A stretch of 46,714 nt of DNA from a virus (Duplodnaviria > Heunggongvirae > Uroviricota > Caudoviricetes), in IMG/VR virus record IMGVR_UViG_2671180847_000008. The stretch is one strand, 5' to 3'. A program made the position numbers and the translations under genes. The notes below the pieces were generated by a model, which was not told the DNA's origin, ran no database searches, and saw only the letters and a list, made by a program, of their open reading frames with translations. Below, in pieces: positions 8,046 to 46,338 of the stretch. Every line of letters begins with the position of its first letter. Position 1 is the stretch's first letter.

Positions 8046-8738
8046 TTAATTGTGTCGCTTAAGGGTTTGTGACTGACTGATTAAGACCTTTCCAAAGACC
8101 ATAAACCGGTGTTCGTTTTCGCTGGTAATTCCCCATTCGCGGTAAATCTGATTATCAGAAATTACCAGCAGTTTATCAGGTATCATTTGCAGTCGTTTGA
8201 CGTAAATTTTATCATCAAAACCAAATACATATATACCATCCCCATCAAACTGATTGATACTGATATCAACGAAGATGAGATCTCCTGGCTCAATGGTTGG
8301 ACACATACTGTCCCCACGAACGTTGATAACTTTAATGTGATTTGCTGGTCGTCCACCAAACATCGATACAGCATTATCAGTTCTGTATTCAATGGCATGA
8401 ATCACATCAATGACATCACCGCCCTGGATAAGGCCATTTCCCGCACTGGCACTGACATCCAGCATTTCAATACGGAATACATCCTTCACCTGCGCAACAT
8501 CCTCACTAATACTGTTTTTACATACAGTATTACTTTTGAAGTCTGAGGTAAAGAGATCAGCAATATCAACACCTAAGCTCCTGGCAATATTACTCAGGGC
8601 TTGTTCAGTGAATTGTTTCTGCTTACCTGTTTCCAGGCGTGAGATATTCGCCGCATCCACTCCTATTGCTTCAGCGAGATCGGCGATTTTCATGTTCTTC
8701 GCCTGGCGAAGTTGTCTGACTCGATTTCCTATGTTCAT
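8046..8738 (-). CDS. cI: CI-like prophage repressor (HTH plus S24/LexA-like peptidase domain)
   Basis: N-terminal HTH (KIADLAEAIGVDAANISRLETG); C-terminal GDSM Ser and VKRL Lys autocleavage motifs; ATG with almost no leader, as for lambda cI. Confidence 0.9.
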   Translation of the reverse strand: MNIGNRVRQLRQAKNMKIADLAEAIGVDAANISRLETGKQKQFTEQALSNIARSLGVDIADLFTSDFKSNTVCKNSISEDVAQVKDVFRIEMLDVSASAGNGLIQGGDVIDVIHAIEYRTDNAVSMFGGRPANHIKVINVRGDSMCPTIEPGDLIFVDISINQFDGDGIYVFGFDDKIYVKRLQMIPDKLLVISDNQIYREWGITSENEHRFMVFGKVLISQSQTLKRHN

Positions 8739-9096: not shown

Positions 9097-9640
9097 GCAT
9101 CACTGGAAAGTGGAAAAACAGCCTGAGTGGTACGTGAAAGCTGTCAGAAAAACTATCGCGGCGTTGCCGGGGGGTTACGCTGAAGCTGCTGACTGGCTGG
9201 ATGTAACAGAGAACGCTTTATTCAACCGCCTTCGTGCAGATGGCGATCAGATTTTCCCGCTGGGATGGGCAATGGTTTTACAGCGCGCGGCTGGCACTCA
9301 CTACATTGCGGATGCTGTCGCACAGTCTGCTGGTGGGGTGTTCGTATCGCTTCCTGAAATTGAGGAAGTAGAGAACGCCGATATAAACCAGCGCCTGCTG
9401 GAAGTCATCGAACAGATCGGGAATTACTCAAAGCAGATTCGTTCGGCAATCGAAGATGGGGTCGTGGAGCCACACGAGCAGACAGCAATTAATGATGAGT
9501 TGTATCTGTCAATTTCGAAGCTCCAGGAACATGCAGCACTGGTCTACAAAATCTTCTGCGCTCCAGAAAAGAGTGACGCCCGCGAGTGTGCAGCTCCGGG
9601 CGTCGTGGCGTTTTGTGTCTGTGGAGAAACTAACGCATGA
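9089..9640 (+). CDS. Early regulatory protein of uncertain function, in the position of cII
   Basis: GTG start with RBS AGGAGG 8 nt upstream; 183 aa; immediately downstream of cro. Confidence 0.6.
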   Translation: MGKHHWKVEKQPEWYVKAVRKTIAALPGGYAEAADWLDVTENALFNRLRADGDQIFPLGWAMVLQRAAGTHYIADAVAQSAGGVFVSLPEIEEVENADINQRLLEVIEQIGNYSKQIRSAIEDGVVEPHEQTAINDELYLSISKLQEHAALVYKIFCAPEKSDARECAAPGVVAFCVCGETNA

Positions 9641-9785
9641 ACAGTTTAACGGCAAATAACCGTTTGTCGCAACAGCTGGTGGTCAGTGTCGCTGAACACC
9701 TGTTGTTACGGCATGAATGCAGATTACCAAATCACCTGGCTGTAAGTAACCACAGAGAACTTTACCTGACTGTGGGGGGCGAGTT

Positions 9786-9965
9786 GTGCAGGAACTTAAC
9801 CGCTGGTTTCGTGACGGAAGAGGGCTTTATGTCCATGTTATTCGTTGGGAACCAGAAACACAGCGCGTTATCTATCTTCGCAAAGACTACCCGCATGAGT
9901 GCTTTAGTCCTTTGTGGAAATTCAGGCGTGATTTTGTTGAGTGTGAAGGACCACCAGCACATTGA
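9786..9965 (+). CDS. Candidate small ORF (59 aa) in a different frame from the 383-aa track ORF
   Basis: GTG start preceded by a G-rich RBS; protein-like translation (NRWFRDGRGLYVHVIRWEPETQRVIYLRKDYPHECFSPLWKFRRDFVECEGPPAH); followed by a terminator. Confidence 0.3.
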   Translation: MQELNRWFRDGRGLYVHVIRWEPETQRVIYLRKDYPHECFSPLWKFRRDFVECEGPPAH

Positions 9966-10050
9966 TTCTGCCATTCCGGGACGTTACACTGTTCAGGCAC
10001 CTTATAAAACGGGTGCCGGGCGTGGAAACCCGGAATTCACCAAAGCGCAC

Positions 10051-10074
10051 AACCGCGCTCTTGCGGTTTTTTTG
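10051..10074 (+). terminator. Rho-independent terminator inside the early-right operon (tR1-like)
   Basis: AACCGC-GCTCTT-GCGGTT hairpin followed by TTTTTTT. Confidence 0.65.
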
Positions 10075-10242
10075 TGTCATGAGCAGCATTACGCCCAAAT
10101 TATGGTGGGGCGTGCAGGGCCAACTTCGGTTGGGCCGGGTTCTTTGGTGACCGGTATTTCCACCCCTGTACGTCTCACCACCAATAAGGTCGTGGAAAGC
10201 CTTGGTGGTGAGTTATTAAAAATCACCAAAGAGGCTGCCATC

Positions 10243-10788
10243 ATGGCTACGATCCCAACCCTCACTCAACCTGAAATTGCCATCGTTGATGGTCAGGCTG
10301 TTACTTCATCCCTGGCTGTTGCCAACTTCTTCTCCAAACGTCATGACGATGTACTGAAAAAGATCCGCACGCTTGAATGCTCAGCATCATTCACTGCCCG
10401 CAATTTTTCGGTGAGTGATTACACTGATTGCACAGGTCGCAAACTTCCTTGCTACCAAATAACCCGCGACGGCTTTGCGTTTCTTGCTATGGGTTTCACG
10501 GGTAAACGTGCTGCCCAGTTCAAAGAGGCATACATCAATGCCTTTAACCAGATGGAGAAACAGCTTTCAAATCCCTCTGTACTGAGCGACGTTGCACATA
10601 ACGCCAGCGTTCTCTATTCCTACATTTCATCAATTCATCAGGTCTGGCTGCAGCAGCTTTATCCTATGTTGGCAAAAGCCGAATCTCCGCTGGCTGTTAG
10701 CTTGTATGACTATATTAATGATGCTTCGGCACTGGCCTGCCTCATAAATTTGTCGCTGAACCCTTCAGAGGTAAGGGGGCGCAAATGA
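10243..10788 (+). CDS. Rha-family phage regulatory protein (antirepressor-like)
   Basis: ATG with RBS AAAGAGG; Rha-domain-like N-terminus (TIPTLTQPEIAIVDGQAVTSSLAVANFFSKRHDDVLKKIR); the upstream 200 codons of the track ORF are judged non-coding. Confidence 0.75.
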   Translation: MATIPTLTQPEIAIVDGQAVTSSLAVANFFSKRHDDVLKKIRTLECSASFTARNFSVSDYTDCTGRKLPCYQITRDGFAFLAMGFTGKRAAQFKEAYINAFNQMEKQLSNPSVLSDVAHNASVLYSYISSIHQVWLQQLYPMLAKAESPLAVSLYDYINDASALACLINLSLNPSEVRGRK

Positions 10789-12315: not shown

Positions 12316-12968
12316 TGAGTAATAAATATTGCCAGGCGCTGGTGGAACTGCGGAATAAACCAGCCCATGAACTGAAGGAAGTGGGCGATCAGTGGCGCAC
12401 GCCGGATAACATTTTCTGGGGAATTAACACCCTGTTTGGTCCGTTTGTTCTGGATCTGTTCACTGACGGTGATAACGCCAAATGTGCCGCGTATTACACG
12501 GCGGAAGACAACGCGCTGGCGCATGACTGGTCAGAACGTCTTGCGGAGCTTAAAGGTGCTGCCTTTGGTAATCCCCCATACAGCCGCGCCAGTCAGCATG
12601 AGGGGCAATACATCACCGGCATGCGTTACATCATGAAGCATGCCAGTGCCATGCGTGATAAAGGCGGGCGCTATGTTTTCCTGATCAAAGCTGCCACCAG
12701 CGAAGTGTGGTGGCCGGAAGATGCAGATCATATTGCTTTTATTCGCGGGCGTATTGGTTTTGAACTGCCTGCCTGGTTTATCCCGAAGGATGAGAAGCAG
12801 GTGCCGACAGGTGCGTTCTTCGCTGGTGCTATTGCTGTTTTCGACAAGACCTGGAAGGGACCGGCAATCAGCTACATCGGGCGCGATGAACTTGAGGCAT
12901 GTGGTGAGGCCTTTCTGGCGCAGGTTCGCCAGCAGGCAGAAAAACTGGTCAGGGAGATGGCGGCATGA
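12315..12968 (+). CDS. Phage Dam-like N6-adenine DNA methyltransferase
   Basis: NPPY catalytic motif (GNPPYS); TAATG overlap with the upstream gene. Confidence 0.8.
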   Translation: MSNKYCQALVELRNKPAHELKEVGDQWRTPDNIFWGINTLFGPFVLDLFTDGDNAKCAAYYTAEDNALAHDWSERLAELKGAAFGNPPYSRASQHEGQYITGMRYIMKHASAMRDKGGRYVFLIKAATSEVWWPEDADHIAFIRGRIGFELPAWFIPKDEKQVPTGAFFAGAIAVFDKTWKGPAISYIGRDELEACGEAFLAQVRQQAEKLVREMAA

Positions 12969-13291
12969 CGACGTTAACTCAATGCCAGCAGCAGGTGCTG
13001 GATATGCTGATTTCTTATCAGAAAGAACGTGGCTTCCCGCCAACCAATCAGGAGGTGGCAACCATGCTGGGATACCGTTCAGTGAATGCAGCGGTGGAGC
13101 ATCTTCGCGCACTGGAGAAAAAAGGCGTCATCACGATAAAGCGTGGCGTGGCCCGGGGGATAACGCTTCATACCGCGGTGAAGGACGACGACAGCGAGGC
13201 GGTCGGGATTATCCGCGCACTGCTTGCCGGTGAGGAAAACGCAAGGCTGCGTGCAACCCACTGGTTACATGAGAGGGACCTGAAAGTATGA
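12965..13291 (+). CDS. LexA N-terminal DNA-binding-domain homologue lacking the peptidase domain
   Basis: Aligns with E. coli LexA residues 1-70 (MKALTARQQEVFDLI...[34 protein letters not shown]); only 108 aa, no S24 domain. Confidence 0.75.
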   Translation: MTTLTQCQQQVLDMLISYQKERGFPPTNQEVATMLGYRSVNAAVEHLRALEKKGVITIKRGVARGITLHTAVKDDDSEAVGIIRALLAGEENARLRATHWLHERDLKV

Positions 13292-17041: not shown

Positions 17042-18094
17042 ATGAAAAATACTGTAAAAATAAACAGTGTTGATTTAATCAACGCTGATTGCCTGCATTT
17101 TATTCAGTCCCTGCCTGATGATTCCATTGACCTGATTGTTACCGATCCGCCGTACTTCAAGGTGAAACCCAACGGCTGGGACAATCAGTGGAAAGGGGAC
17201 GAAGATTACCTTAAGTGGCTGGACCACTGTCTGGCCCAGTTCTGGCGGGTGTTAAAACCTGCCGGAAGCCTTTACCTGTTCTGTGGGCATCGCCTGGCAT
17301 CTGATATTGAGATCATGATGCGCGAACGTTTCAACGTGCTTAACCATATCATCTGGGCGAAGCCGTCCGGACGTTGGAATGGGTGTAATAAAGAAAGTCT
17401 GCGCGCATATTTTCCTGCCACAGAGCGCGTTCTGTTTGCTGAACATTACCAGGGGCCATATCGCGGCAAAAGTGACGGCTATGCGGCAAAAGAAAGGGAA
17501 CTCAAACAGCACATAATGGCACCGCTGATATCGTATTTCAGGGATGCTCGTGCCGCACTGGGTATAACGGCAAAACAAATTGCCGAAGCCACAGGTAAGA
17601 AAAATATGGTTTCCCACTGGTTTGGTGCCAGTCAGTGGCAGTTGCCGAATGAGGCTGACTATCGGAAGTTACAGGCACTGTTTTCCCGTATAGCGGCAGA
17701 GAAGTTTCAGGAACAACAACTGGAACAACCACACCACCAGCTGGTGGCATCTTATGATTCACTGAATCGTAAATATTCTGAATTGCTGGATGAGTTTAAA
17801 TCTCTCCGGCGTTATTTCTCCGTATCAGTCTCCGTGCCTTATACCGATGTCTGGATGCATAAACCCGTTCAGTTCTACCCGGGTAAACATCCGTGTGAGA
17901 AACCGGCGGATATGCTCAGGCAAATAATCAATGCCAGTAGTCGACCTGGTGATCTGGTTGCTGATTTTTTTATGGGATCCGGTTCCACAATAAAAGCAGC
18001 AATGGCGCTGGGGCGTCGGGCCTTAGGTGTTGAGCTTGAGTCAGAGCGGTTTAACCAGACAGTGAAAGAGATAAACGAGCTGGTGGGGAAATAA
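17042..18094 (+). CDS. Orphan DNA methyltransferase (N6-adenine or N4-cytosine class)
   Basis: DPPY motif (VTDPPYF) and AdoMet-binding FxGxG (FFMGSGST); no adjacent endonuclease gene. Confidence 0.85.
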
Positions 18095-43506: not shown

Positions 43507-43689
43507 TATCTTTCAAGACCTGAAGGAGGCTGTTCCTGGTACGTTCTGACTGTTGTTGATCTGGAAATTGCAACGGAGGAAGAGAAATCGTTACTGGCCG
43601 CATGGAAGACATATCGGGTGTTGTTGAATCGTGTTGATACATCAACTGCACCTGATATTGAGTGGCCGGAAGAACCAGACACAATGTAA
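43507..43689 (+). pseudogene. 3' remnant of a tail-fibre assembly (tfa) gene
   Basis: No start codon; the last ~45 codons ([42 protein letters not shown]) resemble Tfa C-termini; in frame directly after the stf stop. Confidence 0.55.
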
Positions 43690-43691
43690 GC

Positions 43692-43737
43692 GAAAAAGAA
43701 AAACCGCAGACACGACGTATGCAGGACGTGCTGCGGT
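43692..43737 (-). terminator. Terminator of the dinI-like gene
   Basis: ACCGCAG...CTGCGGT hairpin followed on the minus strand by TTTTTCTTTTT. Confidence 0.65.
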
Positions 43738-43804
43738 TGGCTGGTGAACTTTCGATAGTGCGAGTATTGAATGATTTCCAGCCGTTACCGATTTTACGTG
43801 TTTA

Positions 43805-44053
43805 TTAGTGAACAAACCACTCGTCAGCAGACTCCCAGGTATCTTTCAGAGTCTCCTGAACAAATGTTTTTGCAGAATCTTTATCTGCGGTGCGTGTAAC
43901 AGAAAGCCCATCGTTGCTGGTGGCTTTTACGATCACCTCTACATCGTCATAACGTTTACTGATGCGTCGGGTTAATTCTTCCTTTAACGCATCCACAGCA
44001 CCGTTTGGCATTTTAGTTATTTTTTCTTTGGCTATGCAGATCTCAATACGCAT
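43805..44053 (-). CDS. dinI: DinI-like DNA-damage-inducible protein
   Basis: 82 aa; [11 protein letters not shown]...[16 protein letters not shown] resembles the DinI family; LexA boxes in its promoter. Confidence 0.85.
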
Positions 44054-44066
44054 AAAAGTCCCTCTA

Positions 44067-44114
44067 TACTGTGTTTGTATACAGTATTATTTTTAACTGT
44101 ATGGATAAACAGTG
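44067..44114. promoter_or_regulatory. Two tandem LexA (SOS) boxes in the dinI-like promoter
   Basis: taCTGTgtttgtatACAGta (44067-44086) and aaCTGTatggataaACAGtg (44095-44114); both fit CTGT-N8-ACAG exactly. Confidence 0.85.
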
Positions 44115-45212
44115 TCAAGAGGTCTTATTTCTGCTCCTTTGGAGCTCTTCAAAACGATTATGTAAAGATTTCGGATACAGTTCGGTATATACCTGCCATA
44201 GCACGTTTAATGAACGATGCCCTGTAACCTGAGCGACTTCCTCAATACTAAAACCAGCCTCAAATAAGCGACTTGCCCCTTCTCTACGCAAATCATGGTA
44301 TCGCAGATCTTTAATACCTAATTTGCTTCTTACCCTCTGAAATCCTGCAGTAACAGAAGTGCTGTTATATGGAAAAATGAATTCCGATTTTTTGGGCTGT
44401 CGTTGGACGATATCCCAGGCTTCCCCAAGCAAGGCTACTTTCATGTGGTTGCCTTCCTTTTTGCGTGGATCTTTCCTGTCTCTTACGAGTATAGATTTTT
44501 GTTCCTGGTCGAGATCTTCCCATCGTAACCGGCATACTTCTCCGATCCGCATACAGGACCACACAGAAAATTTGAGGATATCAACGAACGGAATTTTTGA
44601 GCATTTATGAGTAGATCGTTGTTGAAGGCCTTCAATGAGCATGTCCAGTTCATCAGATGCTGGTCTACGATTACGACGGTTTGATTTACCAATCAAACCA
44701 AGTTTAAGTAGATATGGGCGAGCGCTTTTCGCCGGGTTTGATGTGTAATTAATTCCGTATACAGGTTTGGCCGCATCCAGAACACTGCCAAGATAACTAA
44801 CATCGTGGCTGACTGTTGCTGGACCTGCACCAGCGTTGTTTCTTAGCCTGCAATGTTCAATTACGTCATTTTCTGTCAGTTCAGATAGTTTGATCGCGGA
44901 GATGTCACTATCCATAAGCAGTTCCAGCACATATCTTTTAGTACGGCCTGCTTTACCTCCGGCATTTGGGTCATTTAAATATTTGTGTAGTAAGTCACGG
45001 ACTGTAAGTCCGTCAACTGCATTTGATGATGGAATGCCATATAGATCTAATTCCATCACTTTCTGTGTTCCCCATGTTTTGGCATGAGCATGTTTAGGGA
45101 ATGTTTTGCTTTCCCTGTAAGTGATAACACCTTTTTCTTTGATAATCACATTACAGCGATAGCGTGGTGTGCCATCGGATTTTAGTCGTTTCTCTATGTT
45201 ATAGTACGCCAT
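44115..45212 (-). CDS. int: Tyrosine integrase (dusA-targeting type)
   Basis: C-terminal catalytic region with HDLRREGASRLFEAG and VTGHRSLNVLWQVYTELY (His-x-x-Arg, Tyr nucleophile); adjacent to the attachment site in dusA. Confidence 0.9.
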   Translation of the reverse strand: MAYYNIEKRLKSDGTPRYRCNVIIKEKGVITYRESKTFPKHAHAKTWGTQKVMELDLYGIPSSNAVDGLTVRDLLHKYLNDPNAGGKAGRTKRYVLELLMDSDISAIKLSELTENDVIEHCRLRNNAGAGPATVSHDVSYLGSVLDAAKPVYGINYTSNPAKSARPYLLKLGLIGKSNRRNRRPASDELDMLIEGLQQRSTHKCSKIPFVDILKFSVWSCMRIGEVCRLRWEDLDQEQKSILVRDRKDPRKKEGNHMKVALLGEAWDIVQRQPKKSEFIFPYNSTSVTAGFQRVRSKLGIKDLRYHDLRREGASRLFEAGFSIEEVAQVTGHRSLNVLWQVYTELYPKSLHNRFEELQRSRNKTS

Positions 45213-45300: not shown

Positions 45301-45410
45301 ATGCACGATAATCCTGAAACACAGAAAACTAATCAAACCAGCGTGATGCCTGAAAAAACTGGCGCTTACTGGAGTTCTCGGTTTAGCATTGCTCCTATGC
45401 TCGACTGGAC
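45301..45410 (+). repeat. attR region: prophage-supplied replacement 5' end of dusA
   Basis: About 80% identical to 1071-1180; encodes a diverged N-terminus ([35 protein letters not shown]) fused in frame to the rest of dusA. Confidence 0.8.
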
Positions 45411-46338
45411 GGACAGACATTGCCGCTATTTCTTGCGTCTGCTTTCCCGCAATACGTTGCTGTATACCGAAATGGTGACCACAGGGGCGATTATTCACGG
45501 TAAAGGTGATTATCTGGCGTACAGTGAAGAAGAACATCCGGTAGCGTTGCAACTGGGCGGTAGCGATCCGGCGGCGCTGGCGCAGTGTGCAAAGCTGGCA
45601 GAAGCGCGCGGATATGATGAGATCAACCTGAATGTCGGCTGCCCGTCTGACCGGGTGCAGAACGGCATGTTTGGTGCGTGTCTGATGGGTAATGCGCAGC
45701 TGGTTGCCGACTGCGTGAAAGCGATGCGCGATGTGGTGTCGATTCCGGTGACGGTGAAAACGCGTATTGGCATCGACGACCAGGACAGCTATGAATTTCT
45801 CTGCGATTTCATCAATACCGTTTCCGGCAAAGGCGAGTGTGAGATGTTCATCATCCACGCACGTAAAGCCTGGCTTTCGGGGTTAAGCCCGAAAGAAAAC
45901 CGTGAAATCCCGCCGCTCGATTATCCGCGTGTGTATCAACTGAAGCGTGACTTTCCGCATCTGACAATGTCGATTAACGGTGGTATCAAGTCGCTGGAAG
46001 AGGCCAAAGCACACCTGCAACATATGGATGGCGTGATGGTCGGGCGCGAGGCGTATCAGAATCCGGGTATTCTGGCGGCGGTAGACCGGGAGATCTTTGG
46101 TTCCTCGGATACCGATGCCGATCCGGTGGCGGTAGTGCGCGCCATGTATCCGTACATTGAGCGTGAACTCAGCCAGGGGACGTATCTCGGCCATATTACC
46201 CGGCATATGTTGGGCTTGTTCCAGGGTATTCCTGGCGCGCGGCAGTGGCGGCGTTATTTAAGTGAAAATGCCCATAAAGCGGGTGCAGACATTAATGTGC
46301 TGGAACACGCGCTCAAACTGGTGGCGGATAAGCGTTAA
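45301..46338 (+). CDS. dusA: tRNA-dihydrouridine synthase A (chimeric: phage-derived first ~35 codons)
   Basis: Full-length 345-aa ORF of the Dus family with catalytic Cys region (NLNVGCPS); promoter and 5' end lie in prophage DNA. Confidence 0.9.

Follow-up and report, generated by a model that had tools for sequence, protein, structure and literature searches.

The locus considered here raises the question of whether two LexA-box-like motifs beside a prophage integrase gene form genuine operators, which gene they would serve and whether they belong to a wider LexA-responsive system of the phage. The window, by which we mean the whole 46,714-nt stretch of DNA that was analysed, is a piece of E. 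coli chromosome with a lambdoid prophage in the 5′ end of dusA. The right end of the window holds dusA itself (45301-46338; Pfam Dus, E 8e-105), and a tyrosine integrase gene of the dusA type, int, occupies 44115-45212 on the minus strand, its stop codon TGA lying at 44117-44115. At about 1078-1182 (an approximate position, derived by BLAST offset from L003 1933-2037) there is a short duplicate of the dusA 5′ end, which is a pseudogene in the annotation of the E. coli E189 prophage. This duplicated fragment marks the left prophage junction, which fits dusA-specific integration. The prophage is closely related to phage mEp460, with 98.3% identity at the dinI-int junction (43690-44330), 99.0% at cI-cro and 98.4% in the LexA-DBD region. 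Its segment from 43690 to 44330 is 100% identical to the prophage of E. coli E189, a mosaic relative of which the left half is not identical. The dinI cassette sits at the tail-fibre end of this mEp460-like lambdoid prophage. Between the gene for a 1261-aa side tail fibre and the dinI terminator, 43558-43689 on the plus strand encodes the C-terminal fragment only of a tail-fibre assembly gene.

Two LexA boxes on the dinI promoter

A preliminary description of the locus had reported two exact CTGT-N8-ACAG motifs between the end of int and the start of dinI, and both were confirmed, at 44069-44084 (CTGTGTTTGTATACAG) and at 44097-44112 (CTGTATGGATAAACAG). The corresponding 20-mers, which as palindromes occupy both strands, are the proximal box at 44067-44086 (TACTGTGTTTGTATACAGTA; TACTGTATACAAACACAGTA when read on the minus strand) and the distal box at 44095-44114 (AACTGTATGGATAAACAGTG; CACTGTTTATCCATACAGTT on the minus strand). 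Both boxes lie between the int stop codon (44115-44117) and the dinI start and, counted on the dinI strand from the ATG at 44053, the proximal core is located 16-31 nt and the distal core 44-59 nt upstream. We scored the window with a symmetrised weight matrix built from the 18 E. coli K-12 LexA operators tabulated in PMC3009722. Left out one at a time, these training operators scored between 4.3 and 28.3 bits, with 17 of the 18 at or above 12.6. The proximal dinI box reached 24.0 bits and the distal box 21.7 bits, so that the scoring called for in the preliminary description places both in the range of verified operators. First-order Markov simulation of the window, repeated 200 times, gave a top site of 10.8 bits on average (sd 2.6) and of 17.5 bits at most. 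The best site in the window is a box inside the phage cI gene (26.9 bits), followed by the proximal dinI box, a box at the start of a methylase gene (23.5 bits) and the distal dinI box, while the fifth-best site scores 8.6 bits. The bare motif CTGT-N8-ACAG occurs five times in the window against 0.62 expected, a count reached in none of 100 shuffles; the fifth exact match, at position 9740, scores 6.1 bits and is at chance level. As their scores fall in the verified-operator range and far above those of the simulations, both dinI boxes can be regarded as putative full-quality LexA operators.

The position of the boxes relative to the surrounding signals is just as regular. On the minus strand the region reads TC TTGACA CTGTTTATCCATACAG T TAAAAAT AATA CTGTATACAAACACAG TATA GAGGGA CTTTT ATG. 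A consensus promoter scan (10 of 12 positions matched) placed the −35 hexamer TTGACA at 44113-44118 and the −10 element TAAAAAT at 44089-44095, which can be read as TAAAAA with a 17-nt spacer or as AAAAAT with an 18-nt spacer. The promoter is thus a sigma-70 consensus match in which the −10 agrees at only 4 of 6 positions, and a scan over a 2-kb region returned fewer promoter-like sites than shuffled sequence did. The same position is annotated as a promoter in the records of mEp460 and VT1-Sakai. The distal box occupies the spacer between −35 and −10, and the proximal box starts 4 nt past the −10, covering about +1 to +20 of the predicted transcript, so that both LexA boxes overlap core elements of the predicted promoter. 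The boxes had been described as driving dinI. They do lie on its promoter, but as LexA operators they would repress rather than drive it.

Downstream of the boxes, a Shine-Dalgarno sequence, GAGGGA, can be read at 44059-44064 on the minus strand, 5 nt before the ATG, and the dinI-like coding sequence extends over 43805-44053 on the same strand, encoding 82 aa (supported by Pfam, PHROG and PDB alignments). An intrinsic terminator follows at 43690-43738 (minus strand), where a hairpin spanning 43738-43702, which begins 67 nt past the dinI stop codon, leads into the U-run UUUCUUUUU. Folding of the minus-strand RNA from 43690 to 43810 gave −31.3 kcal/mol (z = −3.3), with a terminal stem-loop followed by the U-run. 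The sole minus-strand ORF beyond dinI, 43645-43815, has a TTG start, encodes 57 aa, runs through the hairpin and gave no match to a PHROG family. An Rfam scan of the whole window placed no known RNA near 43.7-44.2 kb. As promoter, two operators, ribosome-binding site, one gene and terminator follow one another, the locus has the make-up of a self-contained one-gene unit. On the upstream side, the int stop codon TGA is embedded in the dinI −35 TTGACA, so that the int frame ends in the first bases of the cassette. This overlap marks the place where the dusA-type int module and the dinI cassette were joined by recombination.

A mobile cassette and its known relatives

To follow the cassette among relatives, we collected 58 IMG/VR and genome loci with enough upstream sequence, which reduced to 27 distinct variants of 130 nt, or 26 when taken as 72 nt. 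Every one of these 26-27 variants keeps two boxes, scoring 14-27 bits, with unchanged offsets. Most substitutions affect the central N8, and there is hardly any variation in the CTG/CAG arms, the −35 or the −10 (among the 25 variants that can be aligned there, the −35 is TTGACA, or TTGATA in some); as the relatives mostly share 98-99% protein identity, this pattern of invariant arms and variable centre rests on few independent changes. A scan of genome contigs with the DinI protein returned only 4 near-identical loci. We also compared 14 diverged phage DinI homologues (37-78% identity) from phages of Escherichia, Klebsiella, Citrobacter, Yersinia, Salmonella and Aeromonas. In 13 of the 14, a strong LexA box ends 13-19 nt before the ATG, and in the remaining one, Yersinia YeP2, the box stands in front of the upstream gene of the pair. 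A LexA box is thus conserved in the orthologous promoters. Tandem boxes are restricted to an E. coli/Citrobacter clade at the tail-fibre end of prophages, represented by 1720a-02, PhiR12_2 and Citrobacter phiNP (26-bp spacing), whereas only one box is present in Klebsiella phage P12620-1 (68% identity) and in a Gifsy-type clade. The Gifsy-type box overlaps the −10, and small ORFs lie downstream of dinI in that clade. In BP-4795 the distal box is degraded, so that some lineages at least can do without the second operator.

Upstream homology among the relatives stops at the −35 hexamer, beyond which at least five unrelated classes of sequence are found, namely the 3′ end of dusA-type int, the sequence that flanks the yehV attachment site of VT1-Sakai and three further classes. 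As the same cassette stands behind unrelated sequences, the −35 is the 5′ edge of a mobile cassette and the neighbourhood of int incidental. The preliminary description had stressed that dinI lies next to the integrase gene; the adjacency is real, but the functional meaning attached to it does not survive the comparison with these at least five upstream contexts. The distal box abuts the int stop codon and no terminator separates int from dinI, and one might therefore imagine that the boxes act on int, for example because bound LexA stops read-through or acts on the 3′ end of the int mRNA. This is highly improbable, as the cassette also occurs without dusA-type int, behind unrelated sequences, and the placing of the boxes follows the −35, the −10 and the dinI ATG rather than int. 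A functional coupling of dinI and int was rejected on the same grounds, the cassette edge at the −35 hexamer and the variable upstream neighbours.

Matches to the 641-bp region 43690-44330 are common in the species. Among 5426 complete E. coli genomes, the region is matched at least in part in 5245 and over most of its length in 709, with a median of 2 and a maximum of 9 matching places per genome. Many E. coli genomes carry, directly upstream of ykgJ, an unannotated remnant of the dinI 3′ end and the sequence downstream of it, which is 85-87% identical to 43716-43862; in the K-12-derived strain DH1 (L105) it spans 1501-1648. As a ykgJ-like gene follows dinI in VT1-Sakai, the K-12 ykgJ locus looks like the relic of a prophage dinI-ykgJ operon.

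A LexA-boxed prophage dinI is a real, common and already described arrangement of enterobacterial prophages. In mEp460 the homologous gene, mEp460_021 (JQ182728), is annotated as a DinI-like protein with a promoter, and in VT1-Sakai (AP000400) a 'putative SOS box' before H0001 stands at the position homologous to the proximal box and a 'putative promoter of H0001 and H0002' at the homologous promoter position. In both phages dinI is found at the prophage end, past the tail-fibre genes and on the opposite strand. Neither record, however, marks the distal box as a LexA site. VT1-Sakai differs further in that both of its boxes are weaker (16.3 and 14.1 bits) and that a ykgJ-like gene follows dinI, whereas the window has dusA-type int upstream and no gene after dinI. 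The sole small addition made here is that a stretch annotated just as 'promoter' holds a second operator, of full strength as judged by its score.

Beyond these records, the layout recurs in a Serratia phage, where a dinI-like gene follows the tail genes, runs in the opposite direction and has a LexA site 14 bp upstream (PMC7556043); the dinI-like gene of phiKO2 is reported to be LexA-regulated, as cited in that paper. For the Gifsy prophages there are experiments: Lemire et al. 2011 described dinI of Gifsy-1, -2 and -3 as the head of a LexA-controlled dinI-antirepressor-irsA operon, in which the LexA box before the dinI homologue is needed for induction by MitC and the Gifsy-2 DinI homologue accumulates after MitC (PMC3121763). 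In a study of the Salmonella SOS regulon, the three Gifsy dinI homologues were induced 4.6- to 23-fold by nalidixic acid (PMC8072944). In Gifsy, then, a prophage dinI homologue directly behind a LexA box is SOS- and LexA-dependent by experiment and, together with the earlier records, this marks the cassette of the window as an instance of a known arrangement. The proposal that the window's dinI is a LexA-controlled, SOS-induced phage copy agrees with what operators on a sigma-70 promoter would lead one to expect, with the Gifsy work and the second-hand account of phiKO2 serving as precedents by analogy.

The likeness to Gifsy has limits. Gifsy prophages have a single box over the −10, an operon whose antirepressor triggers induction and repressors that are not cleaved, whereas the window has two boxes, one gene and an S24-type CI, and the DinI proteins share only ~42% identity. 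Another LexA-controlled phage gene with DinI homology, tum of phage 186 (and its PSP3 counterpart), encodes an antirepressor fused to a DinI-like half (PMC3121763), and this antirepressor half is absent from the DinI of the window. Modelled on the Gifsy operon, on the Tum fusion and on the small ORFs downstream of the diverged single-box homologues, a module of the Gifsy/186 type would use the promoter mainly to express a small antirepressor encoded after dinI, which would inactivate the phage repressor. We give this reading very little credence for the window. A strong terminator hairpin closes the unit, the only downstream ORF crosses that hairpin and has no PHROG match, and no small antirepressor gene is thus seen to be co-transcribed after dinI. 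Unlike the non-cleaved Gifsy repressors, the phage CI (8046-8738, minus strand) consists of an HTH and a Peptidase_S24 domain (E 5.9e-19) and so has a self-cleavage domain, and an Ash/Rha-type ORF with isrK and C4 RNAs is placed elsewhere, at 9637-10788. A hidden antirepressor after dinI was rejected because of the terminator, the want of a credible ORF and the S24-type CI.

Host promoters offer a further comparison. Chromosomal E. coli dinI is likewise a LexA-repressed short one-gene unit, and its product belongs to the same family with alignment at the fold level. It differs in its single operator, ACCTGTATAAATAACCAGTA, which scores 21.5 bits against a matrix built without it, where the prophage has two, and in its protein, which has clearly diverged and is set apart by two small indels. 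Promoters with more than one LexA box are also found at lexA, recN, ydjM and Salmonella chromosomal dinI, which is listed with two boxes (PMC8072944 Table 1). The spacings that we computed from that table are ~18-23 bp, whereas in the prophage the centres of the boxes are 28 bp apart and each box lies on a different promoter element.

The DinI protein and its likely action on RecA

The preliminary description had named DinI-family similarity as a point to be settled by profile search, and the similarity proved strong. The 82-aa product matched Pfam PF06183 (DinI) with E 1.2e-19 and 70.8 bits against a cutoff of 24.2, over profile positions 1-63 of 63, and PHROG 189, 'RecA filament binding protein DinI', with E 4e-31, over positions 71-149 of a 151-position profile. 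In a phmmer search it aligned with E. coli DinI (PDB 1GHH and 7YWA, the latter being a RecA-DinI cryo-EM entry) from end to end, residues 1-81 to residues 1-79, with E 8e-13. This alignment of about 80 aa includes the C-terminal acidic helix, WESADxWF, of which the E. coli counterpart is TWESADDWFV.

In the cryo-EM structure, L13, L21, W71, W77 and F78 of E. coli DinI surround F203 of RecA, and the acidic residues E24, E69 and D76 also hold RecA (PMC9926225). Aligned to L13, L21, E24, E69, W71, D76, W77 and F78, the prophage protein has M, L, E, D, W, E, W and F, so that all RecA-contact residues are identical or conservative. From these conserved contacts we infer that prophage DinI binds RecA, and it most likely modulates the activity of RecA*. 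As LexA, UmuD and lambda CI engage RecA through the L2 loop and basic patch that DinI also uses (PMC9926225), the shared surface offers a structural basis for any competition between DinI and phage CI.

Taken together, the operators, the promoter and the protein argue for a LexA-repressed, SOS-inducible, one-gene dinI cassette that acts through host LexA, which we consider very probable. In an undamaged lysogen, host LexA dimers would occupy both operators of the one sigma-70 promoter and hold dinI tightly off. Upon DNA damage, RecA* would trigger self-cleavage of LexA and the promoter would open, allowing a short one-gene mRNA with ribosome-binding site, 82 codons and terminator to be made independently of the phage CI switch. 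Chromosomal dinI has a single operator, and neither of the two prophage operators is weaker than it; we would therefore expect the prophage gene to be repressed more tightly, and released later, than its host counterpart. The phage DinI would then lie in the RecA groove, where it would stabilise filaments and compete with UmuD and with the phage's own S24-type CI. The feedback on RecA-dependent CI cleavage that the preliminary description envisaged is in this sense mechanistically plausible.

The benefit might instead go mainly to the host, with added DinI dosage restraining UmuD processing and SOS as a form of lysogenic conversion and with no role in phage induction. DinI preferentially inhibits UmuD cleavage, and the multiple matching places per E. 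coli genome are typical of accessory genes. Non-polar dinI deletions in Gifsy-1 and Gifsy-3 caused no measurable change in induction (PMC3121763), which points in the same direction. We regard this as possible but somewhat unlikely, and it is compatible with, not exclusive of, a LexA-repressed cassette. That a phage DinI limits the induction of Stx phages is already a hypothesis in print (PMC8456039).

LexA boxes in cI and a methylase gene, and the LexA-DBD gene

The strongest LexA box of the window is not at dinI but inside cI, at 8510-8529 (TACTGTTTTTACATACAGTA; 26.9 bits), within the hypervariable linker that joins the HTH and S24 domains. SfII (28.4 bits), Salmonella ST64B (23.0 bits) and a Klebsiella phage (23.1 bits) keep this box at the same codons, although the linker amino acids differ. 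Within the box, 15 of 20 alignment columns are identical in all four sequences, against 6 of 30 in the next stretch, and the codons of its three invariant residues are identical in all four, whereas gene-wide only 25% of such codons are. In the 40-kb genome of ST64B, from which both dinI and the LexA-DBD gene are absent, the cI box is the only LexA box of at least 13 bits. A scan of viral contigs with the cI alignment gave 80 near-identical loci that added no diversity. A consensus scan of both strands found no promoter beside the box; by eye, TTTACC-N17-TACTGT is conserved on the cI sense strand, which may only reflect conserved LFTS codons. A promoter at the box for a CI fragment with the C-terminal domain only was considered and fails, because the in-frame ATG is not conserved in ST64B and the Klebsiella phage. 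In the literature on ST64B/LexA/repressor and on mEp460/LexA, judged by title and abstract, we found no description of a LexA box inside cI.

A further box of 23.5 bits, at 17050-17069, covers codons 3-9 of a DNA methylase gene (17042-18094, plus strand) that lies between Q and the lysis genes. This box is kept in the E189 prophage, mEp460, phiP27, Hafnia phage yong2 and phiKO2, and is absent in N15. In the comparison of phiP27, yong2 and phiKO2 it stands ~150 nt past the annotated late-promoter terminator. In this position, where the late operon begins, it may serve as a LexA checkpoint or roadblock.

The same phage encodes, at 12965-13291 on the plus strand, a 108-aa protein that aligns without gaps to LexA residues 2-70 (E 6e-16). 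It contains the N-terminal DNA-binding domain only, with no S24 or catalytic domain, although a 'LLAGEE' stretch resembles the cleavage-site region of LexA. In the alignment it keeps the residues at LexA positions 39, 41, 42 and 45, which we take to be the base-contacting residues of the LexA-DNA crystal structure. The gene, annotated 'LexA DNA binding domain protein' in mEp460 and SfII, lies between dam and rusA in the nin region, where it forms an insertion of ~320 bp by comparison with the E189 prophage. Homologues are widespread, with 2527 member sequences in the largest cluster and further examples in SfV, SfII, cdtI and Stx2c phages.

The preliminary description had combined dinI and the LexA-DBD gene into one SOS-interface module, which our comparison did not bear out. 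The two genes are 31 kb apart and show no linkage, their co-occurrence among phage records is partial, and the E189 prophage has the identical dinI/int region and no LexA-DBD gene; ST64B, in turn, has the cI box and neither gene. With this separation and the absence from E189, a shared function of dinI and the LexA-DBD gene is a doubtful possibility rather than a demonstrated module.

A related reading gives the protein, not the gene order, the leading part. The dinI operators would also, or even mainly, be bound by the phage's uncleavable LexA-DBD-only protein, which would re-repress dinI and the other boxes in lytic growth once host LexA is lost. The gapless match to LexA, the retained residues at positions 39, 41, 42 and 45 and four boxes of 21.7-26.9 bits in the same phage speak for such a role, but the affinity of an isolated LexA N-terminal domain for operators is far below that of the dimer. 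In the E189 prophage, moreover, which does not have the gene, both the dinI cassette and the methylase box are unchanged, ST64B keeps its cI box in the same situation, and the gene is remote from dinI. A precedent comes from GIL01, whose gp6, a LexA homologue without a C-terminal domain, regulates a late promoter (PMC6182141). On balance we consider it quite unlikely that the LexA-DBD protein acts at dinI in this way, and host LexA remains our preferred regulator of the cassette. Whether the dinI operators are one node of a phage-wide LexA regulon is a broader matter. Such a regulon, in which the uncleavable LexA-DBD protein could occupy all four boxes after host LexA has been destroyed, is a speculative idea that we hold to be unlikely.

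A separate observation concerns the ORF at 9637-10788, for which an 'Ash/Rha' call was made ('regulatory protein Rha' in mEp460). It contains isrK at 9997-10073 (plus strand; Rfam 67.9 bits) and a C4 antisense RNA at 10098-10185 (plus strand; 83.6 bits), and its Pfam Ash match, residues 117-213, covers exactly the isrK/C4 stretch. As the Ash match coincides with the two RNA genes, this suggests a P1-like c4/ant antirepressor module in which the ORF is possibly over-extended.

For the biology of these phages, the dinI finding itself adds little, as the gene described is the usual SOS-inducible dinI accessory gene, found widely in E. coli. The practical value lies in the precise map of promoter, two operators, ribosome-binding site, coding sequence and terminator. 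With this map, the effect of prophage DinI on RecA*-dependent repressor cleavage and on induction becomes testable, including in Stx phages that have the same cassette. More interesting than the dinI cassette are the conserved LexA boxes in cI and at the methylase start, which suggest direct inputs of LexA into lambdoid immunity and late regions. If a phage-wide regulon were true, LexA would act directly on these two regions, in parallel with CI cleavage.
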